Positions 1 through 61,612 of a DNA stretch of 63,069 nucleotides are shown one piece after another; within the stretch, counting starts at the first letter, position 1; every line of letters begins with the position of its first letter. The notes below the pieces were generated by a model that was not told where the DNA came from, ran no database searches, and was given only the letters and a program-made list of their open reading frames with translations. This DNA is from Bilabrum cf. latius (taxonomy: Eukaryota): positions 1,054,001 to 1,117,069 of the forward strand of contig OZ237752.1 in the NCBI GenBank assembly GCA_965178125.1, read 5' to 3'. Both the position numbers and the translations under genes were made by a program.

Positions 1-3000
1 GCGGGCGGAGCGAGCACCCGAGGCCTCCCCAGGGCCCTGCTTTGGACCCCGTTGGTCAAGCGGCATCGGAAGGATCATAGCGAGCTCGCTGGCCAGCGGG
101 GAGGCGCGGCGGACACGTCTCTAGCCGGACTGCCTGGGACTGCGGGGCCTGGCCCCGGACTCGTGCAAATGACCCCCCGCAGTGCCCAGGCCCGTGCCCA
201 CGGTAGAGGCACTGCCCCCGCTCATGAGAGCAGCGGCCGCTGCGGCCTGCCGAGCTGCGGGGGTGGGCGCGCGGGGCGAAGGGGGTCGACTGCTGCCTCG
301 TGGTTGTGGTTCGGGGGCGTCCAGGAGCGCGCCCTAGGATCGCCCTGCCTGATCACCGAGAGCGGGCCCCGCTGGCCTGAGCGCACGCCTCGCATCTCTC
401 CGGAAGACGTACACGTGCTGCGCACCCCCCAGCGCGATCGAGTCTCCATCCTCCAGCACAACGTCCTCCTTCGCCACGCGCCCGTTCACGCTCACCCAGG
501 CATCCGCGGCGGGTCTCAAGACGATCGTCCCGCGCTGCACGCGCCTGGCCACTTCGGGAGACAGCTGCGCCGAACCGGCACCACTGGAGGATCCCACGAG
601 CGGCCCAGGCGCGTGCAGCACGAGGCAGTGTTCCGGCAGCATCCCCGGCCCGCCCAGTCGCACGTCCTGGGCAGCATTCGCCCGCTGGCCCCCCGCCCCT
701 ATCCTGGTGACTCCGAGCCTGAGAGGGAACATGAGCGCCGCAGTGAGCAAGGGGTCCTCGCTGGCGTTGACGAGGCAGGGCAGGCCCAGGGAGCGGGAGG
801 CGCGGGCCACTGCCACCGAGGGGGAGTCGCTCTAGGGGGGCAGGCCGAGCGGCGACATCAGGGCGGCCGGTCGGGCTGCTCTCTGGGGAGATGGCAGGGA
901 GGCCAGTCCAGGCGGCGGGATGGCGTTCTTTCTTTCCGTCTGCGTGCTCTGCATCGGTGCCTCGATCGATGCGTTCCCTCTTGGCGACTGTCCTGCGCCC
1001 GGCATTCCATCTGCCTGCAGGTGCTCTGTGGCCCATCGTCCACCCGCCACCGCGCCCTCCTCCACCTCCGCCCCGTCCGACTGCAGCTGCAGCCCAAGGG
1101 ACGCCAGGGCCTCCCGCCTGCGCCTCCACAGCACCGCCGTCCTGCGCCTCTTGTCCGCCCAGCTCTCCGAGTGACGAGTGAGGGCCTCCTGGTACGCGCA
1201 CAGCCGCTGGAGGAGGGTCCGCAGCGGCAGTTTCTCGCTGGGCGTCCCCTCGTCCCGGCCCCCCGGGATCATGCGGTCGATGCCCCGCCGCCTGGCCTCC
1301 TCCTCCTCCTCCTGGGCTGCCCGCCGCCACATGGGATGCTCAGGGTCCCAGAGCCCCCCGTCCCAGCCGAACTCGCCGCCCAGAGACACGAGAGCCTCTT
1401 GCGCCTGCCGACTCAGCACACCATCGCCATCGCCCTCGCCCTCGTCGCCCTGTTCCTAATCGCCATCGCCGCCACCAGGACTACTGCCTGCAGCATGGGC
1501 CGATTTCGTCCGGCTGTCCTCCCGGCTGTCCTCCCGCTGACCCGTAAGACCCGGGGATACCCGCGGCCCACGGGACGGACTCGCCGGCGCGGAGGCAGAC
1601 TGCGGCTGGGGCAGGGCATCGGCTGGACGAGCGGCGGTTGGAGCACCCCCACCGCCAGCCACGCTGTGTCGGCGAGGCCGCAGGGGAAGACCGGGCGGGG
1701 CCCCTTCCTACAAGCCGCTGCCCTCGTCTGCCTCCGTCTGGCTTGCGGCCCCGGACGTGCTCGAGGGTTGCCTCGACCTGCGTCCCCGGCCCCTCCTCTT
1801 CCTCTCCTGCTGCGCCCGCTGGAGCAGTCGCTTGGCCACGCGCGGAGACCGCAGCCGCACAAGCACTTGCAGCCGGTGCACCTCTGCCTGCAGATCCGCG
1901 GCCAGTCGCCTGGGCTGGTGCTGATTTACAGCCACCCTGGTGGTGACGTGCCTCGCCGAGGAGGCGTACCTCAGCGTGCTCAGGGTGGCGGCGAAGTCCC
2001 GATCCGCGGGGCTCACAGCTGCCAGGAGGGTGGTGCGTGCATTGCCCTGGAGACAGTCCCGCAGAAGGAAGGACAGCGCGCTGCTGCGGTAGGGCACAAA
2101 GGGGGCAGGTGGAGCGGTGCGGCCCCTCTGAATGGCAGCAGCCGTCGCTCTCGCGTGCTCTGCCAGTGTGCTGAGGCACTGCGCCAGGGTGAACAGGCTC
2201 CGGTTGATGGCCTTGGTTTCCCGCCGCCTGCTGAGGGCCTTGCCACGAGCCCCCGTGGCCAGCTCGGCCATCGAGGGACCCTCCACGGAATCTCTCGAGG
2301 CGGCATCGCCTGCCCCACCCTTGAGGCTCTCGCTGCCGGCAAGGTCCACGAAGCGGGCGGAGGCGGTGCGCCTCGTCTCTCGCCCCGTCTGCGTGTCCAG
2401 CAGCTAGTGCGACACGTGCACCGTCAGAACCGCGTGGGACCGCGAGCTTGCCCTGTTCCTCTCCGTGGATGCCACTGCCCTGGCCTTGGCGGCGTCGTCC
2501 AGCAGCGCCGCGGCCTCCTCGAAGGACGTGATCGCGTGCCGGCTGAGACCCTGCACCACGACACCCACGCCGGGAGCCTCTCTCAGCCGCAGCTCCGACC
2601 GCTTGCCCTTGCCGGCACCATCTTCCTCGCCCTCACTGGGCCCCAGGGAGGGCGCCAGGAGATCCCTCATCTTCTCCGCGTATATCTCCATGAAGCTGAC
2701 CTCCACGGTCACTGCGTGCAGCTCCCTGGGGCGGCCGCTGCTGGCTTGATCGACAGAGTGCGCATGCAGCAGGGGGTTGGCATCTGCCCCGCCGTCCAGG
2801 CCGCACCTAGCGTGTGTCTCCTTAACTAAGGCGAGCAGGCGCCTCAGGAACCGAGGCACAATCCCCTGTAGCGTGGCGGTGGTGGGCACGCCCTCGGGCA
2901 CGCCCCCGAGCGAGCCACCTGCCCCTAGAAGAGGAATGGCCTCCGGCGTCGGTCCCAGCAGGCTGAATGTCTTGCCGCTGCCTGTCATCCCGTAGGCCAG

Positions 3001-5067
3001 CAGAGCACTGTTTACCCCCCTCCACGCGTCCCGCAGCAGTGGCATACCCGCCGCCTCGAACACTACAGCCTGCGAGGCCACGATCCGTCGACGGGCTGCC
3101 TGTGGGGGAGATGGATTGGGCCCGGCGCCGGCTGCCGGTAGCATGCCTGGGTCCTCGCTGGGCTCCGAGTCAAGCACCCCGTCCACCACGAACGAGTGCG
3201 AGTCCCCCGACCTCGCCCTGCCCACGGGCCGCAGCACCGTCACCCTGGTTGGCAGCACGGGAAGCTCATCGCCCCGCGACTGCTCTCCCTCGGTACTGGC
3301 TGCCGTCCCTGGCGCGTCAGCCATGCCCGACCCCTGCCCGTGTGCCGGCACCACCACCACCCTTGCTGCCCCAGCCGATTGTTCCTCGCCTGACAATGGG
3401 CGCACGCGCAGCAGCACCCGCACCCTCGCGTCCTGGCTGGGTCCGGAGGGCGCCCCCGGCGGCATGGCATCCAGCAGCCTGCCTGCATCCATGCTCGCTG
3501 CATGACCCCTGTCCACGGGTGGGTCCCCCTTGTCCTCTGTGCTGGTGGCCAGAGACAGGGCAGAGGATGAGGCAGCATCGGCCGCAGCTGCCTCCCCGTC
3601 GCTTTGAGACCCACTCTCCTGCGTCGGCCGGCTGCCCGTTTCCCCCAGAAGAAGCACGTCTCTCGACCGGATCACGCCCTTGCCTCTTCCGGTGGGTAGC
3701 ACCGCGGATGCAGCGCCAATTTCTGCTCTGCTTTTGTCCATTGTGACCGGAGGCACGTCAGAGACTCTCGGGTCTCTGGGTCTCGTGAGTTCCACCGCGA
3801 GCGAGGGCTCGAAGGCGCTCAGCAGCAGCACGCGCAGCTGGCTCGAGTCGGCCTCGGCTGCCACTGCGAGCACCCGCCTGCCGACTCCCTGCCCTCTCAG
3901 CACGGCGAATACCAGCTTACGTACGAACGTCAGCTACCCGTCGGTGTTGTACGCAGGCCCGTTCAGCAGCTCGCGGAGGGAGCCGGGCATGGGTAGAGCG
4001 TCCGATTCCAGCCTCTGCCGCGCGTTGAAGCGCCGCAGCAGCTCGCGACAGCTCTGCAGGGCGCGGCGCTCCGCCCGGGCCACGTCAGGCATTGATCTAG
4101 GGCCTGCCGGTGGCGATGTCTGGCTCTTTACCTATGGATGGCCGCTGGAGTTCACCGGCAACGGGTGGTATCGTTTCTAGGAGCCGCCGAGCGAGCCGCC
4201 TTCGCCGCTGCCTGGGTCAGACTGCATTGCACGGTGGTTGGCAGCATCACCTGCAGCACTGCTGCCATCGAGAGCACTCGTCCCGGGCCCAGTTCCAGTC
4301 CCGGCCCTGGCCCCAGATGCATGCTTGCCTAGTGCTACACTGACAGGTAGGTCGTGCCCGGCCGGGTCACGCGCGCTGCCACTGCCAGCCGCCCTCGGGG
4401 GTGACACCGCGCGCACCACGCGGGCATCTGCAGTGGCTCGGCCCACTCCTCTGCCCCTCATGGATCCAGAGGACCGCGGGTCGGGCGGGCTCCCGGCGAG
4501 CAGGCTGGCTCCAGCGGCGGCGCGAGGGCCACGCGGGCCTGGGGGGCGAGAGGCACCCTGCCGTAGGCCGCTCGACTGCAGCACCGGGGCGAGGTCGCCT
4601 CGATGGCGCCGTGCCGACTGGCGGGGGCTAGACTTTGGACTGAGTCGAATGCGCTTGTCTGGGGCTGGTATGTCTTGTTTGCCTTCGGTGGCTGATGCCA
4701 GTCTGGCCCGGCGCAATCTCTGCAATCTCGCCGCCCTGTTGCCCGCTGGGATTGACTTGCTTGGAGCAGCGCCGTGCATCCCGCCCGAACGTTCGATTCC
4801 CGATGCTATGCTACGACTAACGGGATACGGAGCTTCACCTGGTGGTACTGCTGACGACTAGCGCTAGCTTGGTGCATCGTCGGCGGGCTTGCTCGCCACA
4901 CGATCGAGATAGAGCGCTGCAGTGCGCTACAAGTCGGAGCCAACTCCATTCGGTGATGATGTAGATGCAGCAGATACTAGCTTTCCTGCCCGGTCTCGAG
5001 CAAGCCTCTCCCTGTTTCTGCGTAGCCTAGCCAACCGAGCGGCTGCTTCCTCCTAGCTGGATGACAT
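1..5067 (-). CDS. Kinesin-3-like motor protein with FHA domain (3' end runs off the window); in-frame TAG read as sense
   Basis: ORF-track pieces 4177, 2404, 1708, 1456, 832 and 334 share one frame and each ends at TAG, with no TAA/TGA from ATG 5067 to base 1. Motifs: AYGMTGSGKTFS (P-loop), SSRSHAV, DLAGSE, HVPYR-like FVPYRSSALS, LVNASEDPLL, and FHA-like GVTRIG...EHC. Confidence 0.9.
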
Positions 5068-5322
5068 TAGCCGAATAAACCAAGCTACTAATTTGTTCTT
5101 GAGATGGAATAGATCAATTTAATGTAAAGCTTCCAATGAAATTTAGAAATTTCGTTTTGTGTCACCGTCACGGCTCGTGTGTTTATTGCTTTGCAACGGC
5201 GACTTGAACACTGCATGTGTGACGAGTGGCTACGCATGCTGCAGCGTGTGGTGTGGTATGTGCAGCGAGTGCTCCCAAATTCACTGAGTTATATCGTGGT
5301 GAGCTGTACAGCCAGTTCCCTA

Positions 5323-6978: not shown

Positions 6979-7370
6979 CCCTATAAAGCCGATAATTATT
7001 CTACAAATGATGCCCTACGGGCACTTCCTAATCCAAAACTGTCTCTCCGTAGTAGCTACGCCGTGAGCCCTGGAAGACTTGAGGAAGTCGTCTTCGCTAA
7101 CAACTCCAGACCATATTTCCGAGCCTACTCCCAAGCCGAACCATAGACAGCTATGCTTTGACCCTATTCATCACTGAATTCGGCAAAAGACGCACGAATC
7201 AAGGATATATTTATGGAAATTGTCGCTGCGTGGGCAGCGTTACCCGGAGTCATAAATGAGTAGCGTGCGATCATTGTTTTTGTCGTGCCAAACATCCAAT
7301 AGTTTGTGTATGGATGGTTCGTTGGCTCGATTAAATGGAGCATTGCTGGTTTAAATTTACTTGAGTCGCT

Positions 7371-10300
7371 ATGGAGCGTAGCTACACGGACGATAAATCG
7401 TCTCGATTCAGGGACAACGCGCCAAACCAACTGGAGCGGACTGGTTCCGGCTACAGTCCGGCATACCAAGCTTCTGCAGGAGTACCAACTCATTTTGGCG
7501 GCTAGGCCACTCACTCATTGCATGATTCTCTGGGTCACCCCGGAGGGCCTTGGATCGGAGGAACAGCGTCTTCGAGACAAACGACAATTAGACATGCGGC
7601 CCAAGGTTCGAATGTCCACGAGCAGCAGTCACGTTACACAGCAGAAGAAGTGCCGGCTACTGCGCAATAGCCTGCATCCTAGGATTAGAATCTTGCTGTT
7701 TCTACTGATGCTTACATTGGGACACCTGGCGTCGTACAGGCTCGCAGTGCCGGTGGATCGACGACTGCATTGATTTCAGGCATGAAACCGGGTGGATTCC
7801 AGGTGGCCAAAGCGCCACCTTCGCTGCGCGCTAGCAATCACACGAGCCGTATGCTAGGTCCGACCGAAGTTGCGGCGGTCCCCTCCCAACGAGCTGCGTT
7901 GCCGCGAGATTTGGCCGCCTAGACGAACGTGGCCCGTGTGTAGGCTGCCCACCAGCCCACTAGTAGCAGCAGCGGCAGCAGCGGCAGCAGCAGCAGCAAT
8001 GCCTTCCCAAGGCCGACATAGGACGCTGCTCCGGGCCAACAGAGCAGAGCGGGCGCAGTTGAGGACGCACTACAGCGAATCAGGCAGATTGAACGCTGCC
8101 GTAGCTACCTGCTCCGCCAGCAGTCGGTACTGGGGCCTGCCTTGGGCCTCATAGACGAGAAGCACCAAAATACCGAAACCACAAAGTAGCTGGCTGAAGA
8201 GATGGTCGCGGGTATCGTCCGTCACGTGCACGCGCAGCACCGAGCTCTCGGCCCGACTCAGTACGAAGCGGCTCTGGCTGGAGCGTGGCAAGGGGTGCAC
8301 GCGTGTATCGCACAACACGTGCTCGCGATTGCTGAAGGGGCCGAGGCCCTCGGAGCCGCCGCGGAAGAGACTATGGAGGTGTGCCACACAACGCTGCGAC
8401 ATGAGCAGCAATTGTATCTCAACCACGTGTGCTCGTAGTGCGAACACCTACACTCGCTGACTGGCCAAAACCGTTGTCTGTTGCGTGCCCTGGCCCCTCA
8501 TGCCAGGGCAGGGGACGAACACCGGATGCAAGCGTCATTCTGGCATGTGTATTACCACATGTCACTGGGATCATGCCTGCCTATCAAGCCGAGCGGCAGG
8601 GCACTCGCCGCTCTCGATGTGCAGGCGAGGCTGAGGATTGACCCGAGCGCGCCTGGGATGAGACCGCGCGGGCTCGTAGACCAGTTCAGGGACGCAGTTG
8701 GCTGGTTGCGACGGACAAGAGAGTGCTCAGAAGCCTCAACTAGTACCTATCGCAGCATGGGAGCAGCTGATGGAGGATCTAGTGGGCCTCCGACTTTCCT
8801 TCGGCGAGGCCAGCTCGTGGCCATCCAGCCGAGGGGTGGTCCTCTAGGCGTGCGAGCTGGGCGTAGGATCCTAGACGATCGGGTGCCTCAGCTGGGCATA
8901 ATATGGAGCATGGATGGGACGCAATAGTGCGAAGTGCTGCTGCTATGCAGACCTTCTGGCTTGCGATGTCCAGGCGAAGCGCTCGCAAGGCACCCACAAC
9001 TGCTGGATGAATACAGCCCTCGACCGCGTCCTGCCGATCGTGAAAGCAGCAAGCAGCCACAGGCGGCCAGGCCCCATCCTATAGTTGGGGCTGAAAATCC
9101 TTCGCGCGCATCAAGCAAGGAAGCGCCATCTTCGCGGCTCACCCGACACGCGTCCATGCGCCGTCGGAGCGACACCAGGCAGCAGCCCGTAGTGGACCCT
9201 ACAGCCGATCCAAACGTTGAGGTGCGTGCGACTGGGGACGTTCATAGCATGAAACAGGCGGTAATTCGAACTAGGATTCGGCTGTGCGTGCTGGTCCGAT
9301 CTGCCGATCGATCGCCCAAGGCAGGCGGAAGCATCGCGCACAGGGGCGCCCGCGTGGATGAGGCCAGGAGGAGGATCCAGCAGGCCACAGGAAGCGGACT
9401 GCACGCCGCCGCCATGGCCTCTGCTTTGAGTCATCGCCGAGAGGATCCTTCGATTGCAAGGCCAGGTGCTGTAGAACCGATCATCATGTCAATGCCAACG
9501 GCCTCGCTTGTACCGCTTGCTGGTGTCGTATCGGATGAGGCAACCAAGCCAGGCACAGTGCCAACAGTCTCGTTCGCCGTGGACTGTGGCCTCGAGTCTG
9601 ATGCAGAGGAAGATGCCCCGAGGCAATCGCCCATTGGCCTGTTGTATGGCGTTGGTGCCTTGCGATGCAGGGGCACCGAGCTGAATCCGTTGCTTGACAC
9701 GCCGTTCACAACACCCATTGCGGATTCGGCTGTGAGCCTCTCTCTCAATTTCAGGAGCTCGCTTGCTCAAGGAGAGACCGATTCTGCACAGAAGAAGCTA
9801 TCTGCCAGGCGCACGGCCAGACAGGCCGTGGAGCGAATCTTGCAAGAGGCCCGCTCAAAGCTGCAGTTCCAAATGCCGGGCTTGCAAGTGTAGCACTCTG
9901 AGCGCGACTGGCTTCAGCGGTGGGATCACGTGCTGAAGGCCTTGCCCGATTGGAGACTGAAGCAGTGCCTATGGGTCGATCCGCTGGGACCGCGGGGCCG
10001 GGTGTGCTGGTCGATGGCCTAGTGGAACGACTGTGCGGCGCTGTTTCCGGGCTTTTTTGCCGAACACGTCACATCGCACGCTGCTCAAGACTACATGCAA
10101 GCCCGCCTGTACTAGATTGCGAGCCAATGCGAGCGACAGGCTGGCTTGGAGGCGTACCCTGCCATGCCGCACTCGATCCCCCGTGCGTTGTTTCATATCA
10201 CAGATGGTATCGCAACCTACAGTGTTAGCACAAAGTACGGAGAAGCAGAGAAGCTGATGAATCAGCTCAGCCCCGCCGTTCCAGCCCGCTGCTTGCAATT

Positions 10301-13300
10301 TTGGCTGCTCCTGTGCCAGGTACCGCCATCGTTGGTGTTACTCATTGTGTTCGGCTGCATTGGCAGAAAGCCTGTCGCTCCCTCCGACGCGAAGCAGTCG
10401 CACGAAGGTTTCAATGGTGTTCCAAATGGACATGCCGGCCACGACGCTACCAGATAGTCTGCAGGTGCTGGTCAACCGGCAGCTGGCAGGTCGGTGGCCG
10501 CTGGCAGCGCCGTGGTATACAGACTCGTTGAGGAGGGTGCTCGCGTGCTGCAGGAGGAGGTAGGCATGGGGCAGGACTCGCTCGATGCGTTGGACAGCGT
10601 GTGGGTGGAACTGAGCATGACTGTGTCTGGAGAGCATGGGCGAGCACTTGGCTCGGAGGAAAACGATTCCGCCCCGCGAATCCCGCCATTTGGCTAGCAC
10701 GTTGTGCTGGCCTGCGTCACGGCGGTTCGAAGGGTCGGTCACTTGGCCGCAGCAGCCATCGACAGGATCCTCGACCTTGGCCTTGAGATGAGCAAATTGC
10801 TGGGCGACCAGCTTGGGCTGCCTGGACGCTCCGATCTGGAGTCAGATCTGGTGTTTCGGGCATGTGATGCGGGGTGGAAGCTCGCTGGTATGCTGACCCC
10901 CGTGCTGGTGGTGGAGGAGGTGGGCTTGCAGCGGAAGGAATCTGCGAAGCCAGACGAGATGGCATCCGATCAGGTGTGCAGCTCGTGGCTCCGAAGGATT
11001 GCTGCCGCTTGCAAATTGCGGCTGGAGCGTCCTGAACTGCAATGGCGAGATCCTGGGCAATGGATGCACATAGATATTGCCGGGCTTGCTTGTGTAGACC
11101 CATGGGGACGGGTTCAAGCTCTGCAGTCCGGCGTGCCATAGACTCTCATGCATGTTGTGAGGTAGGATGCATCGTTGGCTCCAGGGTCAAGCTCGGCCTC
11201 GGTGTCACAACCACTCCAATAGAACGGCCACACGGAGGCCGCAAGCGCCAAGCCGAATGCGTGGCTGGTGGGCAGTAGCAATACTGCTCGATGCCTGAGG
11301 ACATTTCTCGGTGAGGAGCAGCAGAGGCTTGCGCTTGCGTCCGGGGGTTCTTTGCAGCCGCTGCCAGTGCAATCGTCGGACTGGGTGGATTGTAGCCATT
11401 CCCTAATGCTGGATAGGAGCATCGCCAGCTTTGCAGATAGCATGGGGCTGCAGTGGGAGGAGCGTGTGAAGCGGCGGCTTCAGTGGATCTAGTCGCGGTG
11501 GGAGCAGGCCGAGGACCAGTTCACGAGAGGGCTGCCCCCCGTGTCTCTGGGCTCACTGCTTGCCCTTGCCTCTTGGCCCCCGGGGGAACTGGTGCCCGAG
11601 TTGCTGGCCGGGAAGGTTCGCCAGCCAGCGATGATGTCGGTTCTGTACGACGAGTTACAGAATGACGACTCGAGTCTGGACCTGGGCAGCATCGTGCCTG
11701 CCTCTTGGATCCCGAGCGATTGTATGCGGGTGCTGCGCTATGCTTTCGATGCGCACATCGCAGCTTCTACTAGCGACCCCGAGATCGGTGGCCTGGCCGC
11801 CCTGGCCCAGTCGTACACATTTGGGGACAAGGCAGTGCCGGCTGAAGCGGAAGGTAGGGAGCATCCAGCCGGATGTCTCGCTGGTGATGAGTGGCTGCGC
11901 TTATTGATGCTCGCGTGGGTGGGCAAGCACGGCCAGCTGCCCGACTGCCAGCTGAGCGGGGCCCCGCTGAGCGCGGCGAGCGGCGTGACCGACGCGAGGC
12001 GCATCCTGTGGGAGGAGGCAGCCGGGGCAGCCATTCTGCTGCAGGACCTGGACGAGTCTGAATCTGAGAACGAGTCCGGTGGAGAAGGTGACTCAGAGCA
12101 CGGGCCCGTGCCGAGTCATGAGCGCACCCGGGTCGATTCGGATCGGAGACCATCCAGGAGGAATTTAGAGGCGTGCGGCGTCCTTCAAGAGAACCGAAGG
12201 GTTGGTCGGTGGTGGGAAATAGTGGACAAGTCAACGCCGATCGTGCCGGTGGGAGATCCTCTGCCTGGTCTCATGGAGGCTCTGCCCGCAGATGCTAGAC
12301 AGCTCGTGGTTGATGCTGCATGGGGCGTAGAGTTTGGAGCGCCGTCCTCTACCGAGCAGCCCAAGATGTCAGACGATCCACACAGCACACAAGAGATTGA
12401 CTAGGTCGCGTCCGCCACAGGCTCAAGCGCGAGTGCAAGTTCACTCTCGCGCTCGAGCCAGAGTGAGCCTGCCCAGGCGTGCAAGTCTCCAGCTCCTGCC
12501 GATGCACCGTTGGGCTCTGGAGCAGACAGCCCCGAGGAGCCATCAAGCTAGCGCGAGAATCAATAGCAAGAGCCCCCCCGGCTCCAGGCTGTTTCGTCCT
12601 GCCACATCCTTCCGCCAGGCAGTGCTCTACGAGAGGATGCCCCTGAGGCACCCATCAGCTCGAAGCGAGCTCGGCGCCTTGAAGACCTGCTCGAGCTGCG
12701 CGGGGAGGGGCTGGTGGGCCGCAGGGTGGTCTTGCGGGGACCGCTGCCAATGCGGCTGACCTCCCTGGGCAAAGAGACCACGGAGGCAAGTGCTTGCGCC
12801 AGGGCGCGGCTTAGAGGAGCCTCAAAGCGGTGCAACTTGAAGGCAGACGGGCCTGTGCCCGGCCCTGGGCTGGACAGCGAATGGGATGCGCGAGACATAT
12901 CCATGGAGCCGTTGATGGCGGACAGGCTGAGGCGCATGGGCCTGGTCAGGCACGACCTGCCGGGGGCCAGGGAGGGTACGAGCCCAGAGTGGTATCGAGG
13001 CAGCTGGACGGAGCCGTGCTGGAGGCAGGCGCAGGTGGAAGCCTATTGCCCCGCGATTGGCATGCACCTGGTTGTGCTTGACGCGGTTGTGCCGCATGCC
13101 GCCGATGAGGGAGAAGAAAAGCGAGATGACGGGTCAATCGATTCAGGTGATGGAACGATGGCGGAGCCAGCACTTGGCAGAAGCAACGATCAGAGTGGCA
13201 CGAACGGAAGTGACATGCAAGGGGCAACTGAGAAACCAGGCCTAGCGACTGGCTGGGGGGCGGTGGACGAGGACTAGCAGCAAGCCATCGCCCTTAGTCT

Positions 13301-46681: not shown

Positions 46682-47220
46682 ACTGATAATACCAAGAAGT
46701 ACTAGCTCGAATGGCTGCCTGATATGGACAGCCTGCCTATCAACAGCGGATCCAGCTGTCTTCCGTATTATAGTTCCGGTTTATATGCCTCGCAAAAGAA
46801 GCCGAATCGTGGAAGCAATCATAGCGCATTTTTTTGCCAGTCAAATAAGCTAGTTCATCATTGGAATGGCGGCAGTATCAGCAGCAACAGGATCAGGGGG
46901 CTCGGGCCTTTATGAAGAGATGGCACGGTGAGAAATGCGAGATTGATGCGACTGTTCCTACCAGTTGTCTGTGGTGAAGCCTGCATGTCAGTGCGCTTTC
47001 ATCCGGCTACTAGACGTCTTAGCTCCTACCAAACAAGTGCTTTGCAAGAAAACTGTCGATTACGCTGTGAACAGTTCCTACCAGCTGGACTTGTTTGCCT
47101 GAGGTTGTGGGGTACCACCCAATGCCGCAGTTCCTGGGCCTCTGTAGCCTCCTGAGCCGTCACCCGACAGAGTATGCCCCGCTTCATTGCACTATTTGTT
47201 TAATCATAATTGCATCGCAG

Positions 47221-48727: not shown

Positions 48728-48894
48728 TTGGTTTGCTGTGGTGCTTGTAAAGGAAAACAAAAAAATACACAGGCATTATCACATGAAAGCTGCAAATTGT
48801 GTTCTTGTCATCGCAAGCATTGCGCTCCCCTACGACTATAATCTACCAGTAAGCTGCCACCCGCACAGCCACGCAGTGCAGCGCTAGTGCAGGT

Positions 48895-51461: not shown

Positions 51462-52653
51462 CGATCATGAGACGTGCTGCCATCCGGGGCTCACCCGGCC
51501 TCACCACCGATCATGAGACGTGCTGCCATCCGGGGCTCACCCGGCCTCACCACCGATCATGAGACCTGCTGCCATCCGGGGCTCACCCGGCCTCACCACC
51601 GATCATGAGACCTGCTGCCATCCGGGGCTCACCCGGCCTCACCACCGATCATGAGACCTGCTGCCATCCGGGGCTCACCCGGCCTCACCACCGATCATGA
51701 GACCTGCTGCCATCCGGGGCTCACCCGGCCTCACCACCGATCATGAGACCTGCTGCCATCCGGGGCTCACCCGGCCTCACCACCGATCATGAGACCTGCT
51801 GCCATCCGGGGCTCACGCGGCCTCACCACCGATCATGAGACCTGCTGCCATCCGGGGCTCACCCGGCCTCACCACCGATCATGAGACCTGCTGCCATCCG
51901 GGGCTCACCCGGCCTCACCACCGATCATGAGACCTGCTGCCATCCGGGGCTCACCCGGCCTCACCACCGATCATGAGACCTGCTGCCATCCGGGGCTCAC
52001 CCGGCCTCACCACCGATCATGAGACCTGCTGCCATCCGGGGCTCACCCGGCCTCACCACCGATCATGAGACCTGCTGCCATCCGGGGCTCACCCGGCCTC
52101 ACCACCGATCATGAGACCTGCTGCCATCCGGGGCTCACCCGGCCTCACCACCGATCATGAGACCTGCTGCCATCCGGGGCTCACCCGGCCTCACCACCGA
52201 TCATGAGACCTGCTGCCATCCGGGGCTCACGCGGCCTCACCACCGATCATGAGACCTGCTGCCATCCGGGGCTCACGCGGCCTCACCACCGATCATGAGA
52301 CCTGCTGCCATCCGGGGCTCACCCGGCCTCACCACCGATCATGAGACCTGCTGCCATCCGGGGCTCACCCGGCCTCACCACCGATCATGAGACCTGCTGC
52401 CATCTGGGGCTCACCCGGCCTCACCACCGATCATGAGACCTGCTGCCATCCGGGGCTCACCCGGCCTCACCACCGATCATGAGACCTGCTGCCATCCGGG
52501 GCTCACCCGGCCTCACCACCGATCATGAGACCTGCTGCCATCCGGGGCTCACGCGGCCTCACCACCGATCATGAGACCTGCTGCCATCCGGGGCTCACCC
52601 GGCCTCACCACCGATCATGAGACCTGCTGCCATCCGGGGCTCACCCGGCCTCA
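51462..52653. repeat. Subtelomeric minisatellite, 46-bp unit, ~26 copies
   Basis: Unit CGATCATGAGACCTGCTGCCATCCGGGGCTCACCCGGCCTCACCAC with rare single-base variants. Confidence 0.97.
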
Positions 52654-52707
52654 GTAGTATATAAAGTGAATGGTGTACCTCAATCAAAGATTGGGTTTAA
52701 GGGGGGG

Positions 52708-53163
52708 TTAGGGTTAGGGTTAGGGTTAGGGTTAGGGTTAGGGTTAGGGTTAGGGTTAGGGTTAGGGTTAGGGTTAGGGTTAGGGTTAGGGTTAGGGTTA
52801 GGGTTAGGGTTAGGGTTAGGGTTAGGGTTAGGGTTAGGGTTAGGGTTAGGGTTAGGGTTAGGGTTAGGGTTAGGGTTAGGGTTAGGGTTAGGGTTAGGGT
52901 TAGGGTTAGGGTTAGGGTTAGGGTTAGGGTTAGGGTTAGGGTTAGGGTTAGGGTTAGGGTTAGGGTTAGGGTTAGGGTTAGGGTTAGGGTTAGGGTTAGG
53001 GTTAGGGTTAGGGTTAGGGTTAGGGTTAGGGTTAGGGTTAGGGTTAGGGTTAGGGTTAGGGTTAGGGTTAGGGTTAGGGTTAGGGTTAGGGTTAGGGTTA
53101 GGGTTAGGGTTAGGGTTAGGGTTAGGGTTAGGGTTAGGGTTAGGGTTAGGGTTAGGGTTAGGG
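52708..53163 (+). repeat. Telomeric repeat tract 1, (TTAGGG)x76, internal
   Basis: Perfect TTAGGG run preceded by a G7 run. Confidence 0.98.
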
Positions 53164-53891
53164 TATCTAATATAAAGTCAGGGACAGGGTCGGGGAAAAA
53201 ATATTTTCATCTTCAATATTTGTCGAAAAACGACGTGCTACGATCTCGGCAACTACAGGTGATATGAAGACCGTTCAAACTGCATCGGGACGGCCTGGGG
53301 GCACAACATGGGCCAAATGTTCCCCAGGTTCCGTTCTGGCCGCGCGGCGCCGATATGGGTGTATGAAGAATTTCACACCGAAAAACGACGTGCTACGATC
53401 TCGGCAACTACAGGTGATATGAAGACCGTTCAAACTGCATCGGGACGGCCTGGGGGCACAACATGGGCCAAATGTTCCCCAGGTTCCGTTCTGGCCGCGC
53501 GGCGCCGATATGGGTGTATGAAGAATTTCACACCGAAAAACGACGTGCTACGATCTCGGCAACTACAGGTGATATGAAGACCGTTCAAACTGCATCGGGA
53601 CGGCCTGGGGGCACAACATGGGCCAAATGTTCCCCAGGTTCCGTTCTGGCCGCGCGGCGCCGATATGGGTGTATGAAGAATTTCACACCGAAAAACGACG
53701 TGCTACGATCTCGGCAACTACAGGTGATATGAAGACCGTTCAAACTGCATCGGGACGGCCTGGGGGCACAACATGGGCCAAATGTTCCCCAGGTTCCGTT
53801 CTGACCGCGCGGCGCCGATATGGGTGTATGAAGAATTTCACACCGAAAAACGACGTGCTACGATCTCGGCAACTACAGGTGATATGAAGAC
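53164..53891. repeat. Conserved junction (~60 bp) plus 155-bp satellite type A, ~4.3 copies (block 1)
   Basis: TATCTAATATAAAGTCAGGGACAGGGTCGGGGAAAAAATATTTTCATCTTC followed by 155-bp periodicity (53308/53463/53618). Confidence 0.95.
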
Positions 53892-54275
53892 TTAGGGTTA
53901 GGGTTAGGGTTAGGGTTAGGGTTAGGGTTAGGGTTAGGGTTAGGGTTAGGGTTAGGGTTAGGGTTAGGGTTAGGGTTAGGGTTAGGGTTAGGGTTAGGGT
54001 TAGGGTTAGGGTTAGGGTTAGGGTTAGGGTTAGGGTTAGGGTTAGGGTTAGGGTTAGGGTTAGGGTTAGGGTTAGGGTTAGGGTTAGGGTTAGGGTTAGG
54101 GTTAGGGTTAGGGTTAGGGTTAGGGTTAGGGTTAGGGTTAGGGTTAGGGTTAGGGTTAGGGTTAGGGTTAGGGTTAGGGTTAGGGTTAGGGTTAGGGTTA
54201 GGGTTAGGGTTAGGGTTAGGGTTAGGGTTAGGGTTAGGGTTAGGGTTAAGGTTAGGGTTAGGGTTAGGGTTAGGG
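53892..54275 (+). repeat. Telomeric repeat tract 2, 64 units with one TTAAGG variant at 54246
   Basis: Read directly from the sequence. Confidence 0.98.
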
Positions 54276-55003
54276 TATCTAATATAAAGTCAGGGACAGG
54301 GTCGGGGAAAAAATATTTTCATCTTCAATATTTGTCGAAAAACGACGTGCTACGATCTCGGCAACTACAGGTGATATGAAGACCGTTCAAACTGCATCGG
54401 GACGGCCTGGGGGCACAACATGGGCCAAATGTTCCCCAGGTTCCGTTCTGGCCGCGCGGCGCCGATATGGGTGTATGAAGAATTTCACACCGAAAAACGA
54501 CGTGCTACGATCTCGGCAACTACAGGTGATATGAAGACCGTTCAAACTGCATCGGGACGGCCTGGGGGCACAACATGGGCCAAATGTTCCCCAGGTTCCG
54601 TTCTGGCCGCGCGGCGCCGATATGGGTGTATGAAGAATTTCACACCGAAAAACGACGTGCTACGATCTCGGCAACTACAGGTGATATGAAGACCGTTCAA
54701 ACTGCATCGGGACGGCCTGGGGGCACAACATGGGCCAAATGTTCCCCAGGTTCCGTTCTGGCCGCGCGGCGCCGATATGGGTGTATGAAGAATTTCACAC
54801 CGAAAAACGACGTGCTACGATCTCGGCAACTACAGGTGATATGAAGACCGTTCAAACTGCATCGGGACGGCCTGGGGGCACAACATGGGCCAAATGTTCC
54901 CCAGGTTCCGTTCTGACCGCGCGGCGCCGATATGGGTGTATGAAGAATTTCACACCGAAAAACGACGTGCTACGATCTCGGCAACTACAGGTGATATGAA
55001 GAC
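54276..55003. repeat. Junction plus 155-bp satellite type A (block 2, copy of block 1)
   Basis: Offset 1,112 bp from block 1, including the CTGACC variant in the fourth monomer. Confidence 0.95.
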
Positions 55004-55387
55004 TTAGGGTTAGGGTTAGGGTTAGGGTTAGGGTTAGGGTTAGGGTTAGGGTTAGGGTTAGGGTTAGGGTTAGGGTTAGGGTTAGGGTTAGGGTTAGGGT
55101 TAGGGTTAGGGTTAGGGTTAGGGTTAGGGTTAGGGTTAGGGTTAGGGTTAGGGTTAGGGTTAGGGTTAGGGTTAGGGTTAGGGTTAGGGTTAGGGTTAGG
55201 GTTAGGGTTAGGGTTAGGGTTAGGGTTAGGGTTAGGGTTAGGGTTAGGGTTAGGGTTAGGGTTAGGGTTAGGGTTAGGGTTAGGGTTAGGGTTAGGGTTA
55301 GGGTTAGGGTTAGGGTTAGGGTTAGGGTTAGGGTTAGGGTTAGGGTTAGGGTTAGGGTTAAGGTTAGGGTTAGGGTTAGGGTTAGGG
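55004..55387 (+). repeat. Telomeric repeat tract 3, 64 units with one TTAAGG variant at 55358
   Basis: Same length and variant position as tract 2. Confidence 0.98.
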
Positions 55388-55845
55388 TATCTAATATAAA
55401 GTCAGGGACAGGGTCGGGGAAAAAATATTTTCATCTTCAATATTTGTCGAAAAACGACGTGCTACGATCTCGGCAACTACAGGTGATATGAAGACCGTTC
55501 AAACTGCATCGGGACGGCCTGGGGGCACAACATGGGCCAAATGTTCCCCAGGTTCCGTTCTGGCCGCGCGGCGCCGATATGGGTGTATGAAGAATTTCAC
55601 ACCGAAAAACGACGTGCTACGATCTCGGCAACTACAGGTGATATGAAGACCGTTCAAACTGCATCGGGACGGCCTGGGGGCACAACATGGGCCAAATGTT
55701 CCCCAGGTTCCGTTCTGGCCGCGCGGCGCCGATATGGGTGTATGAAGAATTTCACACCGAAAAACGACGTGCTACGATCTCGGCAACTACAGGTGATATG
55801 AAGACCGTTCAAACTGCATCGGGACGGCCTGGGGGCACAACATGG
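55388..55845. repeat. Junction plus 155-bp satellite type A, ~2.5 copies (block 3, truncated at a different point)
   Basis: Ends at CACAACATGG, followed by TTTA, a G run and telomeric repeats. Confidence 0.95.
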
Positions 55846-55859
55846 TTTAGGGGGGGGGG

Positions 55860-56531
55860 TTAGGGTTAGGGTTAGGGTTAGGGTTAGGGTTAGGGTTAGG
55901 GTTAGGGTTAGGGTTAGGGTTAGGGTTAGGGTTAGGGTTAGGGTTAGGGTTAGGGTTAGGGTTAGGGTTAGGGTTAGGGTTAGGGTTAGGGTTAGGGTTA
56001 GGGTTAGGGTTAGGGTTAGGGTTAGGGTTAGGGTTAGGGTTAGGGTTAGGGTTAGGGTTAGGGTTAGGGTTAGGGTTAGGGTTAGGGTTAGGGTTAGGGT
56101 TAGGGTTAGGGTTAGGGTTAGGGTTAGGGTTAGGGTTAGGGTTAGGGTTAGGGTTAGGGTTAGGGTTAGGGTTAGGGTTAGGGTTAGGGTTAGGGTTAGG
56201 GTTAGGGTTAGGGTTAGGGTTAGGGTTAGGGTTAGGGTTAGGGTTAGGGTTAGGGTTAGGGTTAGGGTTAGGGTTAGGGTTAGGGTTAGGGTTAGGGTTA
56301 GGGTTAGGGTTAGGGTTAGGGTTAGGGTTAGGGTTAGGGTTAGGGTTAGGGTTAGGGTTAGGGTTAGGGTTAGGGTTAGGGTTAGGGTTAGGGTTAGGGT
56401 TAGGGTTAGGGTTAGGGTTAGGGTTAGGGTTAGGGTTAGGGTTAGGGTTAGGGTTAGGGTTAGGGTTAGGGTTAGGGTTAGGGTTAGGGTTAGGGTTAGG
56501 GTTAGGGTTAGGGTTAGGGTTAGGGTTAGGG
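55860..56531 (+). repeat. Telomeric repeat tract 4, (TTAGGG)x112
   Basis: Perfect run preceded by a G10 run. Confidence 0.98.
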
Positions 56532-58244
56532 TATCTATTATAAAGTCAGGGACAGGGTCGGGGAAAAATATTTTCATCTTCACTTTTTGACAAAATCCTG
56601 CGGGATACGATCTCGGCAACCACAGGAGATATGAAGACCGTTCAAATTGCGTTGGGACGGCCTAGGGCCACATCATTGGCCAAATGTTCCTCAGGTTCCG
56701 CTTTTGACGCGCGGCGCCAATATTGGGCCTTGAAGATTTTCATGCTGAAATCCTGCGGGATACGATCTCGGCAACCACAGGAGATATGAAGACCGTTCAA
56801 ATTGCGTTGGGACGGCCTAGGGCCACAACATTGGCCAAATGTTCCTCAGGTTCCGCTTTTGACGCGCGGCGCCAATATTGGGCCTTGAAGATTTTCATGC
56901 TGAAATCCTGCGGGATACGATCTCGGCAACCACAGGAGATATGAAGACCGTTCAAATTGCGTTGGGACGGCCTAGGGCCACAACATTGGCCAAATGTTCC
57001 TCAGGTTCCGCTTTTGACGCGCGGCGCCAATATTGGGCCTTGAAGATTTTCATGCTGAAATCCTGCGGGATACGATCTCGGCAACCACAGGAGATATGAA
57101 GACCGTTAAAATTGCATTGGGACGGCCTAGAGCCACATCATTGGCCAAATGTTCCTCAGGTTCCGCTTTTGACGCGCGGCGCCAATATTGGGCCTTGAAG
57201 ATTTTCATGCTGAAATCCTGCGGGATACGATCTCGGCAACCACAGGAGATATGAAGACCGTTCAAATTGCGTTGGGACGGCCTAGGGCCACATCATTGGC
57301 CAAATGTTCCTCAGGTTCCGCTTTTGACGCGCGGCGCCAATATTGGGCCTTGAAGATTTTCATGCTGAAATCCTGCGGGATACGATCTCGGCAACCACAG
57401 GAGATATGAAGACCGTTCAAATTGCGTTGGGACGGCCTAGAGCCACATCATTGGCCAAATGTTCCTCAGGTTCCGCTTTTGACGCGCGGCGCCAATATTG
57501 GGCCTTGAAGATTTTCATGCTGAAATCCTGCGGGATACGATCTCGGCAACCACAGGAGATATGAAGACCGTTCAAATTGCGTTGGGACGGCCTAGGGCCA
57601 CATCATTGGCCAAATGTTCCTCAGGTTCCGCTTTTGACGCGCGGCGCCAATATTGGGCCTTGAAGATTTTCATGCTGAAATCCTGCGGGATACGATCTCG
57701 GCAACCACAGGAGATATGAAGACCGTTCAAATTGCGTTGGGACGGCCTAGAGCCACATCATTGGCCAAATGTTCCTCAGGTTCCGCTTTTGACGCGCGGC
57801 GCCAATATTGGGCCTTGAAGATTTTCATGCTGAAATCCTGCGGGATACGATCTCGGCAACCACAGGAGATATGAAGACCGTTCAAATTGCGTTGGGACGG
57901 CCTAGGGCCACAACATTGGCCAAATGTTCCTCAGGTTCCGCTTTTGACGCGCAGCGCCAATATTGGGCCTTGAAGATTTTCATGCTGAAATCCTGCGGGA
58001 TACGATCTCGGCAACCACAGGAGATATGAAGACCGTTCAAATTGCGTTGGGACGGCCTAGGGCCACATCATTGGCCAAATGTTCCTCAGGTTCCGCTTTT
58101 GACGCGCGGCGCCAATATTGGGCCTTGAAGATTTTCATGCTGAAATCCTGCGGGATACGATCTCGGCAACCACAGGAGATATGAAGACCGTTCAAATTGC
58201 GTTGGGACGGCCTAGGGCCACAACATTGGCCAAATGTTCCTCAG
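56532..58244. repeat. Variant junction plus 155-bp satellite type B, ~10.6 copies
   Basis: TATCTATTATAAAGTCAGGGACAGGGTCGGGGAAAAATATTTTCATCTTC followed by 155-bp periodicity (56723/56878/...). The monomer is clearly homologous to type A. Confidence 0.95.
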
Positions 58245-58298
58245 ATTCATTGTACTTCATTCAGTGCAAGTATGGCGTATTGAAACCTACTCGGGGGA

Positions 58299-59814
58299 GG
58301 TTTCAAAACCTACCCAGGGCGGTTTCAAAACCTACCCAGGGCGGTTTCAAAACCTACCCAGGGCGGTTTCAAAACCTACCCAGGGCGGTTTCAAAACCTA
58401 CCCAGGGCGGTTTCAAAACCTACCCAGGGCGGTTTCAAAACCTACCCAGGGCGGTTTCAAAACCTACCCAGGGCGGTTTCAAAACCTACCCAGGGCGGTT
58501 TCAAAACCTACCCAGGGCGGTTTCAAAACCTACCCAGGGCGGTTTCAAAACCTACCCAGGGCGGTTTCAAAACCTACCCAGGGCGGTTTCAAAACCTACC
58601 CAGGGCGGTTTCAAAACCTACCCAGGGCGGTTTCAAAACCTACCCAGGGCGGTTTCAAAACCTACCCAGGGCGGTTTCAAAACCTACCCAGGGCGGTTTC
58701 AAAACCTACCCAGGGCGGTTTCAAAACCTACCCAGGGCGGTTTCAAAACCTACCCAGGGCGGTTTCAAAACCTACCCAGGGCGGTTTCAAAACCTACCCA
58801 GGGCGGTTTCAAAACCTACCCAGGGCGGTTTCAAAACCTACCCAGGGCGGTTTCAAAACCTACCCAGGGCGGTTTCAAAACCTACCCAGGGCGGTTTCAA
58901 AACCTACCCAGGGCGGTTTCAAAACCTACCCAGGGCGGTTTCAAAACCTACCCAGGGCGGTTTCAAAACCTACCCAGGGCGGTTTCAAAACCTACCCAGG
59001 GCGGTTTCAAAACCTACCCAGGGCGGTTTCAAAACCTACCCAGGGCGGTTTCGAAACCTACCCAGGGCGGTTTCAAAACCTACCCAGGGCGGTTTCAAAA
59101 CCTACCCAGGGCGGTTTCAAAACCTACCCAGGGCGGTTTCAAAACCTACCCAGGGCGGTTTCAAAACCTACCCAGGGCGGTTTCAAAACCTACCCAGGGC
59201 GGTTTCAAAACCTACCCAGGGCGGTTTCAAAACCTACCCAGGGCGGTTTCAAAACCTACCCAGGGCGGTTTCAAAACCTACCCAGGGCGGTTTCAAAACC
59301 TACCCAGGGCGGTTTCAAAACCTACCCAGGGCGGTTTCAAAACCTACCCAGGGCGGTTTCAAAACCTACCCAGGGCGGTTTCAAAACCTACCCAGGGCGG
59401 TTTCAAAACCTACCCAGGGCGGTTTCAAAACCTACCCAGGGCGGTTTCAAAACCTACCCAGGGCGGTTTCAAAACCTACCCAGGGCGGTTTCAAAACCTA
59501 CCCAGGGCGGTTTCAAAACCTACCCAGGGCGGTTTCAAAACCTACCCAGGGCGGTTTCAAAACCTACCCAGGGCGGTTTCAAAACCTACCCAGGGCGGTT
59601 TCAAAACCTACCCAGGGAGGTTTCAAAACCTACCCAGGGCGGTTTCAAAACCTACCCAGGGAGGTTTCAAAACCTACCCAGGGAGGTTTCAAAACCTACC
59701 CAGGGAGGTTTCAAAACCTACCCAGGGAGGTTTCAAAACCTACCCAGGGAGGTTTCAAAACCTACCCAGGGAGGTTTCAAAACCTACCCAGGGAGGTTTG
59801 AAACCTACCCTAGG
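58299..59814. repeat. 22-bp minisatellite GGTTTCAAAACCTACCCAGGGC, ~69 copies
   Basis: Read directly. Degenerate edge copies; the GGGA variant is concentrated at the distal end. Confidence 0.97.
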
Positions 59815-60076: not shown

Positions 60077-61612
60077 TCACTCGTTATCGGAGGAGGGTTC
60101 CGCATCGACAGCTGCCAGGAGCGCCTCAACAGCGTCCACGTCTGCTGCATTGAGATCTCCTTCCGCCGTCTTCTCGAGGGCCGTCATCAGGCCTACGAGC
60201 GTGCCCAACCCGTCGTCCCTCTCTTGAATTGTTTCCTGCACGTCCTCGAGCATGTCGTCGAGAGTTCGGCTGACGCCCAGCGCTATGTCATCGCAGGCAG
60301 CGAGGATGCGGTCCACCAGGTGCCGCTGCTAGTCGGTGAAGCCGTTGTCATCCACTCCACCGTCGTTCTCAGAGTCGTCTTGCTGGTTCTGGGCCTCGTT
60401 CTCTTCTTCCTCATCCAGCTCGTCCTGATCCTCCTCGTCCTGCTGCACGAGTTCTATCGGAGCCTCATCCTCGTCCTCTTCATCGGCTGCGTCTGCGTGG
60501 TATCGATCACCGATCTCCTCTTCATCCTCCTCAGAGTCCTGTCGAGGCAGTGATGCTGCTGCTCCACTCCTTGCGCCTCTTGCTCCCCTCTTGTCCTGGC
60601 CAACGGCGTGGCGAGCTCCTCCGCCATAGCCCGGTTGGAGAATGGGCGATCGCTTGTGCTGTATCTTAGCCCGAGGTGCCGCTTCAGTCGCCTTCCTGCG
60701 CTCCGGTTCTGCCGGTTGCGCACCTTCATCCCTCGGCTTTCCCTTTGACTTTCCCTTTGACTTGCCCGCGGCCTTGGTCCTGGCCTTCAATTTGGCCTTT
60801 GCCTTTTCCCTGGCCTTGGCCTCCGCTCTCCGCTTGGGGCCGAGTAGGTCGTTGTTCAGTCGCTCGGTCTATGAGTCGCTGGACTCTGAGCCGTCTGAAT
60901 CTTGCTCGCCTCGTTTCCTCTGGGCCTTGTAGGCACTGTGGTCCGCGACACCGTCGTCGGGGTCGTCCTCGTCGTCGTCGACCATGGCACTCCGTTTGTC
61001 CTTGCCAGCACGGGGTGCTCCACTCGGCGAAGCAGCAGCGGCTCCCGCAGAAGCATCTTGGTCCCCTGCGGCTGCCGCGGCAGAGTCCTTGACTGCCATG
61101 TCAAACACGTCTTGGAACACAGCCTGCATGCCTCCACGCGCACGCACAGAGGCTTTCCCAGCTCCGTAGTCGCAGACGAACTTGATCGCGGTCTTGTAGT
61201 TCCTCCGCAAGCCATCCATGCCTGCCTTGAACCAAGGATTGTGGCTGGTAGAGTAGCCGCTGTCGCGCAGGCCCATGAGCATCTAATTCATCTTGCGGTA
61301 GCCTGGCGAGCTGGTGCCGCTAGTTGATGCAGCCGGATATAGGCGGTGACTCAGCACCTTCAGCATGTCAGGCGGCAGATCGGACTCATTCAGGTCCAGC
61401 ATGGCATCCACGCAGGCTTTGATGCCCTCTTTCTTGGTCCCCTAGTAGTGCTCGGTAGACCCGCAGAGTAACCCGCAATCTTGGTGGAGGCCCACGAGGG
61501 AGATCAGCAGGACTTGCTTGGCAGCAGACGTGCTGACGCCTGAAGCCAGGGCAGCCACGACGGGGCGGGAGGCCTTGGTGTGCTTGACGCTGTAGCTCTT
61601 TGCGGCGGCCAT
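60077..61612 (-). CDS. Hypothetical protein, 511 aa, with basic and acidic low-complexity tracts
   Basis: Pieces 61442, 60869, 60329 and 60077 share one frame, joined by TAGs at 61442, 61283, 60869 and 60329. ATG 61612 (MAAAKSYSVKH...), TGA at 60077. Confidence 0.75.

Follow-up and report, generated by a model that had tools for sequence, protein, structure and literature searches.

Does the triplet TAG still mean stop in an organism whose genes carry it in frame, again and again, and even inside conserved domains? The question is raised by a stretch of 63,069 nucleotides (nt) from the Bilabrum cf. latius assembly GCA_965178125.1 (contig OZ237752.1, positions 1,054,001 to 1,117,069 of the forward strand), hereafter the window. 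An earlier reading of its letters, called the original prediction here, had proposed that UAG has turned into a sense codon, with termination left to UAA and UGA. This proposal is upheld by open reading frame (ORF) statistics, by the positions of TAG in conserved domains, by RNA contigs and by a related species. The window probably belongs to the nuclear genome of a eukaryote, GC-rich and with few introns, in which UAG is sense, most likely glutamine, and in which UGA (the main stop) and UAA terminate. NCBI table 15 has the same pattern. The GC content of the window is 52-69%.

One line of evidence is the length of the ORFs. Under the standard code the longest ORF of the window has 942 amino acids (aa). 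When TAG alone is read through, the longest ORFs become 4196, 1980, 1706 and 1242 aa, and the ORFs opened in this way carry SET, kinesin, PP2C, PCO_ADO, VPS28, TMEM107 and ProA domains. Reading through TAA alone takes the longest ORF from 942 to 956 aa. One total from the same exercise runs the other way, namely that the summed ORF length is greater when TGA is read through (37,095 aa) than when TAG is (29,944 aa). However, reading through TGA lengthens many medium ORFs and none exceeds 942 aa. The larger sum reflects the abundance of TGA, which is more frequent here than TAG or TAA, a chance effect in GC-rich DNA.

Another line of evidence is the avoidance of the three triplets. Over the 18 coding segments of the window (14,462 codons) TAG stands in frame 117 times. 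The corresponding zero for TAA and TGA is by construction, as those ORFs are delimited by TAA and TGA. A comparison of frames was made for seven long ORFs, whose 10,534 in-frame codons were set against the 52,642 codons that the same DNA holds in its five remaining frames. The other frames hold 378 TAG, 98 TAA and 560 TGA (658 TAA plus TGA). In frame, 132 TAA plus TGA are expected and none is observed (Fisher p 1e-29). For TAA on its own the out-of-frame rate (98/52,642) predicts about 20 in the 10,534 codons, and again there is none. TAG, on the other hand, occurs 70 times, or at 0.66% per codon in frame vs 0.72% out of frame. It is clear that TAG is entirely unavoided in frame, whereas TAA and TGA are wholly avoided. 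With 70 TAG and no TAA or TGA in the seven ORFs, the pattern that the original prediction had named as contrary to it, internal TAA and TGA as frequent as TAG, is absent.

Pfam and PDB searches indicate that the ORFs opened by TAG are real genes. The genes and long ORFs of the window, by position and strand, are these:

1 to 5118, minus strand: kinesin-3-like gene (Pfam Kinesin, 1.9e-66; PDB alignments to KIF13B/KIF1A), with its 3' part beyond the window edge
7365 to 19955, plus strand: ORF of 4196 codons with a C-terminal SET/post-SET region (Pfam SET, 2.3e-9); TGA stop
20274 to 21335, plus strand: VPS28 (Pfam VPS28, 3e-36, profile positions 2-188 of 188); TGA at 21333
21408 to 23333, minus strand: PP2C phosphatase in two exons (Pfam PP2C, 8e-47 and 6.6e-9)
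24352 to 28080, plus strand: WD40 protein of 1242 codons; three in-frame TAG, TGA stop
29048 to 30238, plus strand: ORF of 396 codons without family match, with coding-like codon usage; six in-frame TAG, TGA stop
31001 to 31948, plus strand: membrane protein of the COPI_assoc family (Pfam, 6.5e-8); TAG 31139 in the domain, TGA stop
32187 to 33155, minus strand: PCO/ADO thiol dioxygenase homologue (Pfam PCO_ADO, 1.2e-14); seven in-frame TAG, TGA stop
33309 to 39251, minus strand: ORF of 1980 codons without family match; 13 in-frame TAG, TAA stop
39652 to 40170, plus strand: TMEM107, exons 39652-39744 and 39838-40170 (Pfam TMEM107, about 72-76 bits, about 5e-20); TAG 39961, TAA stop
40236 to 42151, minus strand: membrane protein called ORF487, exons 41749-42151 and 40236-41650, the intron backed by an RNA joint
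42421 to 43461, plus strand: RACK1; no TAG, TGA stop, poly(A) site 43838
44360 to 46039, plus strand: last exon of a Cdc6/Orc1-like gene (Pfam Cdc6_C, 8.1e-5, below the cut-off of that family); TAG 44561
47210 to 48727, plus strand: ProA, monofunctional gamma-glutamyl phosphate reductase (PDB 1vlu, 6.6e-112; Aldedh/ProA); TGA stop
48895 to 50727, minus strand: membrane protein of 610 codons with a weak SBP_bac_3 match; five in-frame TAG, TGA stop
60077 to 61828, minus strand: ORF of 583 codons without family match, with coding-like codon usage; four in-frame TAG, TGA stop

Where do the TAGs lie within these genes? Seven Pfam-type domains (kinesin, PP2C, PCO_ADO, VPS28, TMEM107, COPI_assoc and ProA) have them inside. 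The kinesin gene has 13, with seven upstream of the motor domain and one inside it, at 2404 between SRSHAV and DLAGSE. VPS28 has TAG 20712 inside its domain, and ProA has TAG 47762 in the context VSALLxLDEHIDLVIPRGS. In PP2C, TAG 23151 and 23073 are in the domain and seven more are in the C-terminal tail, which has a coding score of 0.30. The seven of the dioxygenase homologue are at 33141, 33069, 32931, 32748, 32634, 32436 and 32220. The SET ORF has 39, none of them beyond the conserved C-terminal parts: they either precede these or fall between them. ORF487 has ten, including a TAGTAG at 40347-40352, and stops at TAA. Close to a domain, in-frame TGA codons occur solely in the PP2C gene, within an inferred 129-nt GT-AG intron (22932-23060), and once this is removed the sequence is continuous in frame. 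All of the sites listed by the original prediction (in ProA, kinesin, VPS28, PP2C, Cdc6 and TMEM107, and the seven in ADO/PCO) are in frame where it had placed them. In other words, UAG is in frame in essentially every gene, and it stands within or before conserved domains whose translation is required.

Must the TAGs be translated as they stand? They might be pseudogene lesions, errors of assembly or sequencing, tiny introns or sites of mRNA editing. A bearing on this comes from sequencing-run contigs, compared over 20 kb of the window. The contigs of run X1 cover this stretch unspliced and represent DNA. Runs X5, X6 and X7 come from two further studies and carry two other organism labels. 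In all three, the GT..AG joints 39743/39837 (TMEM107), 41650/41749 (ORF487) and 46926/47220 are skipped, and in X5 only the GT-AG joint 44265/44359 of the Cdc6-like gene is skipped too. X5 also shows a run of A at 43838, the RACK1 poly(A) site, and the depth of the RNA contigs varies 500-fold, with RACK1 the deepest. Because introns are skipped, a poly(A) end is present and depth varies to this extent, the contigs of X5, X6 and X7 are transcripts.

These transcripts keep the TAGs. Twenty-nine in-frame TAGs, including ProA 47762, TMEM107 39961 and six of the seven dioxygenase sites, lie under contig pieces from the three RNA runs without one differing letter, and the unspliced X1 contigs agree with the window at the TAGs. 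There are no differences in the RNA contigs 31042-33079 (COPI_assoc and ADO), 34850-39399 (the 1980-codon ORF) and, for ProA, 47220-48773 (X5) and 47220-48064 (X6). One difference was seen over the 20 kb, an A>G at 38619 in one contig of depth 2.4. The dominant mRNA keeps UAG, which is neither edited nor spliced out. The expectation of the original prediction that UAG would stay unedited and unspliced in mRNA is thereby borne out in spliced, polyadenylated RNA contigs.

That the TAGs go untranslated is now scarcely credible. The same TAGs are present in DNA and RNA contigs from three studies, and real introns are skipped in the RNA contigs while the TAG sites stay. General decay would yield all three stop triplets, yet the 117 TAGs are accompanied by no TAA or TGA. 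Furthermore, a second species (see below) carries TAGs elsewhere in the same genes. What speaks for the idea is that these are assembled contigs, with which minor or partial editing at a low level is compatible; no other support for it was found.

The second species came to light through RACK1. Among 3803 matches of a RACK1 search there is one metagenome relative, with 85% protein identity and 81.5% DNA identity. Apart from this relative and a fragment of the window itself, all of the 3803 matches are at most 54% identical, and the named ones (plants, a green alga, a fungus and MMETSP/EukProt protists) are few and all equally distant. Two contigs of the relative, L001 and L002, join through an overlap into a stretch of 6.1 kb. 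This stretch is syntenic with 40-46 kb of the window, the order ORF487 homologue, RACK1, Cdc6 being common to both. Outside RACK1 the protein identity of the two species is about 47-71%, and the GC content of the relative is lower, at 54-56%. A metagenome scan with the relative's RACK1 gave L001, L002 and nine distant loci, which were left out.

The relative has the same trait. Its homologues of Cdc6 and ORF487 form ORFs of 777 and 620 codons, but only with TAG read as sense, and contain six and three TAG, respectively. Opposite each of its three aligned Cdc6 TAGs the window has CAG. Only one of about 14 aligned TAG positions, in ORF487, is TAG in both species, and because of this the turnover between TAG and CAG appears to be fast relative to the divergence of the two.

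Public protein databases hold three further pieces. P0121, P0271 and P0272 are fragments of 156-163 aa, 68-80% identical to window proteins and known as protein sequence only. P0271 and P0272 are 75-80% identical to the SET ORF (residues 1039-1206 and 1541-1703). P0121 ends exactly at a window TAG and P0272 ends at a window glutamine (CAG). All three look like products of gene calling with the standard code. With ADO as query, an exhaustive HMMER search returned 233 proteins (E up to 0.001), P0121 being the sole close relative among them, and a word-indexed protein search with ADO gave no matches among 8000 candidates. A metagenome scan with the 4196-aa SET protein gave 590 pattern matches, none of which was confirmed.

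If UAG is sense, which amino acid does it encode? The original prediction had named none, and comparison of aligned residues makes glutamine the most likely. A posterior was calculated from BLOSUM62 conditional probabilities for all 20 residues, using either nine sites (local identity at least 0.5) or 11 sites. Glutamine receives 0.80 with nine sites and 0.87 with 11. The runner-up is glutamate (0.14) in the first case and histidine (0.07, with glutamate at 0.05) in the second, and leucine, tyrosine and lysine receive about 0.01 or less each. This calculation underweights two near-identical contexts. One is window TAG 32436 in ADO, which faces glutamine in P0121 between otherwise identical flanks (local identity 0.94). 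The other is one of the three CAG-facing Cdc6 TAGs of the relative, also in a stretch of local identity 0.94. The other window TAGs face His (two), Glu (two), Ser, Arg and Gly in the relatives.

Codon usage is consistent with this. TAG/(TAG+CAG) is 0.216 and TTG/(TTG+CTG) is 0.231 (14,272 codons). Such parity would be expected of a synonymous pair with C or T at the first position, which is to say that it agrees with the reading rather than tests it. TAG makes up about 17% of glutamine codons, and glutamine has a share of 4.6% if TAG is counted and 3.8% if it is not. The parity and the near-absence of shared TAG positions point to an old and completed reassignment.

Nevertheless, some observations count against glutamine or leave it exposed. 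The call rests on these 9-11 sites, from about 6 kb of relative DNA and three protein fragments. Pfam scores were obtained with TAG read as Gln, Glu, Leu, Lys or Tyr (the other 15 residues entering through the species pairs only), and the bit sums over six domains are 561.4, 561.7, 555.5, 560.1 and 552.8, respectively. By themselves they have no power to separate Gln, Glu and Lys. The TAG of TMEM107 prefers leucine by 3.8 bits. At position 75 of ADO, distant homologues have E in 17, S in 14 and D in 7 of 66, and at position 136 their residues are mixed. These counts come from a phmmer alignment, as hmmalign aligned almost nothing at the TAG columns. TAG 13275, at about residue 1971 of the SET ORF, lies in a motif (...DEDxQQAIALSL...) that resembles a ubiquitin-interacting motif. 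The usual residue at that position is presumably hydrophobic, which would be mild evidence against glutamine there.

Structures were compared as well. The PDB residues opposite the TAGs are Thr for kinesin (6a20) and Ala for ADO (7cxz), Asp (1vlu), Lys (8j0e, 8y2h) or Thr (4ghk) for ProA, and Thr (2p8e) or Glu (6b67 and others) for PP2C. All of these columns are variable and polar, and none is decisive by itself. Over PDB and Pfam together, most columns at TAG sites are of this polar, variable kind. Leucine was considered as the meaning of UAG on account of TMEM107 and the ubiquitin-interaction-like motif. It was rejected, at 6 bits below glutamine in the Pfam sum and 18 bits below in the species pairs.

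What if UAG is sense and the stops are UAA and UGA, and the residue is another one? The next best is glutamate. Its Pfam sum is marginally the highest, the relative has GAG opposite two window TAGs, distant homologues favour it at ADO position 75, and its posterior is 0.05-0.14. Yet both sites with near-identical flanks have glutamine, and each of the three aligned Cdc6 TAGs of the relative is a single C/T transition away from the CAG that it faces. The parity with TTG and CTG also fits a synonymous C/T pair. Leucine, tyrosine and lysine are disfavoured by 6 or more bits. A residue other than glutamine is therefore improbable, and UAG as glutamine is retained in what follows.

The last aspect is whether UAG ever terminates. 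The original prediction had counted 18 gene ends, 15 with TGA and three with TAA. That all ends are TGA or TAA holds, but the number that could be traced is 16, with 13 TGA and three TAA. Ends that match a family-defined C-terminus are those of RACK1 (TGA, likewise in the relative), SET/post-SET (TGA) and TMEM107 (TAA).

Two genes do not fit comfortably with UAG as sense throughout. In VPS28 the Pfam profile is matched to its last position (188 of 188), and the very next codon is TAG 20979. PDB homologues stop no more than two to four residues from this point (2j9w is aligned to residue 100 of 102). The 117 codons after this TAG carry no coding signal: their score, -0.03, falls near the 5th percentile among coding windows and near the 95th among off-frame ones. 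This tail (20979-21335) is of low complexity, contains a (GGAGCA)n repeat and runs to the TGA at 21333. In ORF487 the TAGTAG is followed by 36 codons to the TAA, without a clear frame signal, and the homologue in the relative ends in ...TAG TGA. Either UAG retains some terminator activity at these places, or they are ancestral UAG stops that are now read into the former 3' untranslated region (3'UTR).

Perhaps, then, UAG has a dual meaning, being glutamine internally and yet terminating, fully or leakily, at some natural gene ends, as in the context-dependent codes known in some ciliates and trypanosomatids. The VPS28 TAG at the family C-terminus with its repeat-bearing tail, the TAGTAG of ORF487 and the end of its homologue are what such a code would account for. 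However, an ancestral stop read into an old 3'UTR would look identical, and one coincidence among about five family-defined C-termini has a chance probability of about 0.1. A gene with 39 internal UAGs would need termination well below about 2% at each for half of its chains to be completed. TAG is not depleted near gene ends, and the segment from the last TAG to the TGA or TAA keeps a frame-0 coding signal in 12 of 14 genes. Very short UTRs have been described for codes in which a codon is stop or sense by context. In contrast, the 3'UTR of RACK1, the sole one measured, has about 375 nt. A dual meaning is accordingly unlikely, though less so than a residue other than glutamine, and UGA and UAA are probably, if not securely, the only present-day stops.

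How might such a code be decoded? A tRNA-Gln with anticodon CUA could read UAG and could not pair with UAA, judging from the other UAG-only codes as described in two papers (PMC5304391, PMC11687900). This tRNA would be one mutation away from tRNA-Gln(CUG). By the same analogy (PMC5304391, PMC11687900), eRF1 would no longer recognise UAG while still recognising UAA and UGA. eRF1 is not encoded in the window. ARAGORN found no tRNA genes, whether in the window or in L001 and L002 from the relative, and an Rfam search of the window gave no match at gathering thresholds.

The window also contains repeats. A block of tandem repeats occupies 51462-59810, where the GC content falls to 52-56%. Satellites are interleaved in it with four arrays of a telomere-type hexamer:

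51462-52653: 46-bp satellite, 26 copies
52705-53164, 53892-54276, 55004-55388 and 55857-56532: interstitial (TTAGGG)n arrays, read on the plus strand, the first with 77 copies and the last with 113
53224-55003, 55448-55845 and 56593-58248: 155-bp satellites
58283-59810: 22-bp satellite, 70 copies

The block looks like subtelomere-type DNA inside the contig, or else like a mis-join of chromosome ends. TAGs within the repeats explain many of the odd codons of ORFs listed in 51462-59810. GC-rich DNA of 63 kb with (TTAGGG)n arrays and with introns such as those described here is a poor fit to ciliate macronuclear DNA. Elsewhere, a 51-bp tandem repeat (34577-34879, 5.9 copies, 97% matches) in the 1980-codon ORF encodes a repeated unit of 17 residues.

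There are two differences between the window and the contigs of four compared runs, including the DNA run. One is a stretch of 36 extra bases between 49258 and 49259, a multiple of three inside the gene for the 610-codon membrane protein. The other is a 46-bp unit at 50680-50771, with two copies in the window and one in the contigs. These are either assembly differences or polymorphism.

The transcripts allow some further observations. The RNA contig depth of RACK1 is about 250-2700, vs 2-190 elsewhere in the compared 20 kb, and a TGTAA lies about 18 nt upstream of its poly(A) site. Its 346 codons hold no TAG, five CAG and no CAA. The COPI_assoc gene (plus strand) and the ADO gene (minus strand) are convergent, with stops only about 240 nt apart. 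Their 3'UTRs probably overlap, because the single RNA contig 31042-33079 spans both genes. Upstream of 31042 the X5 and X7 contigs run on with letters that differ from the window, and this points to one more 5' exon of COPI_assoc outside the compared 20 kb. Runs X8-X24, left out of the contig comparison, gave small shares (0.05-0.12), which probably reflect the conserved RACK1 and are uninformative on habitat. TMEM107 belongs to a family of the ciliary transition zone, and the organism probably has a ciliated stage.

Why does this matter? UAA and UAG are nearly always reassigned together, and codes that split them are known from only a handful of nuclear lineages. Such codes are the natural test of how eRF1 tells UAG from UAA. 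Distinctive here are the GC-rich genome with UGA as main stop, the level usage of UAG:CAG and TTG:CTG, and the coexistence of assembled DNA, transcripts and a related species. Because these data exist, the decoder tRNA, the changes in eRF1 and the fate of genes that formerly ended in UAG could be readable from what is already available. There is also a practical side. Annotation of this genome or its relatives with the standard code would fragment most proteins, and the relatives' public proteins are already cut in this way.

How does the code compare with those already known? In Iotanema spirale (Fornicata) UAG is glutamine and UAA and UGA are stops, with 204 in-frame UAG in 126 genes (PMC5304391, PMC9161772). 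Its genes end in UAA (104 of 119) or UGA (15 of 119), and the GTS motif of its eRF1 is changed (PMC5304391, PMC9161772). The likeness to the window is that UAG alone has become glutamine, that UAA and UGA stand at homology-defined ends and that UAG is frequent in conserved genes. However, the main stop of Iotanema is UAA. Here it is TGA (13 of 16 ends), and the GC content is 52-69%. Moreover, as compared with Iotanema, the window encodes a homologue of an O2-dependent thiol dioxygenase and the ciliary TMEM107, and no named protein set has a RACK1 more than 54% identical to that of the window.

The phyllopharyngean ciliates Hartmannula sinica and Trochilia petrani also read UAG as glutamine, with UAA as the preferred stop, and in an uncultivated TARA lineage UAG is leucine (PMC11687900). 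The window shares with them the reassignment of UAG alone with UAA kept as a stop, and a suppressor tRNA(CUA), as predicted here, is their proposed decoder. Unlike the phyllopharyngeans, the window is a GC-rich 63 kb with GT-AG introns of about 93-293 nt and (TTAGGG)n arrays, and the leucine of the TARA lineage is disfavoured. Leucine is also the meaning of UAG in Rhizaria sp. exLh, a UAG-only reassignment outside the ciliates (PMC5304391), whereas here it lies about 18 bits below glutamine in the species pairs and 6 bits below in the Pfam sum. Taken together, GC content, UGA use, introns, arrays, gene content and RACK1 distance are weak evidence against placing the organism among the ciliates or close to Iotanema.

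Codes that reassign more than UAG are a further comparison. In the UAR = Gln code (NCBI table 6; many ciliates and hexamitin diplomonads, among others) UAG is glutamine as well. That code was tried for the window and rejected: reading through TAA gains almost nothing, and UAA, which ends three genes, is not sense here, with none in frame for about 20 expected. With the context-dependent codes of Condylostoma, karyorelicts and Blastocrithidia (UAA; PMC11687900) a possible shared trait is the TAG at the end of VPS28. Unlike in those codes, UAG is the sole stop codon that is sense here, and UGA and UAA are never in frame.

In the open-access library that was searched, supplementary tables excluded, no UAG = Gln nuclear code is reported outside Iotanema and the phyllopharyngean ciliates. 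The code variant itself is thus already known, and the present lineage is probably a further carrier of a rare pattern. Whether it acquired that pattern on its own is a question on which the evidence is evenly poised. If it did, this would be an independent, undescribed origin of UAG as glutamine in a deep-branching, GC-rich, non-ciliate lineage of at least two species, perhaps one with 'fossil' UAG stops, for which VPS28 is the candidate.

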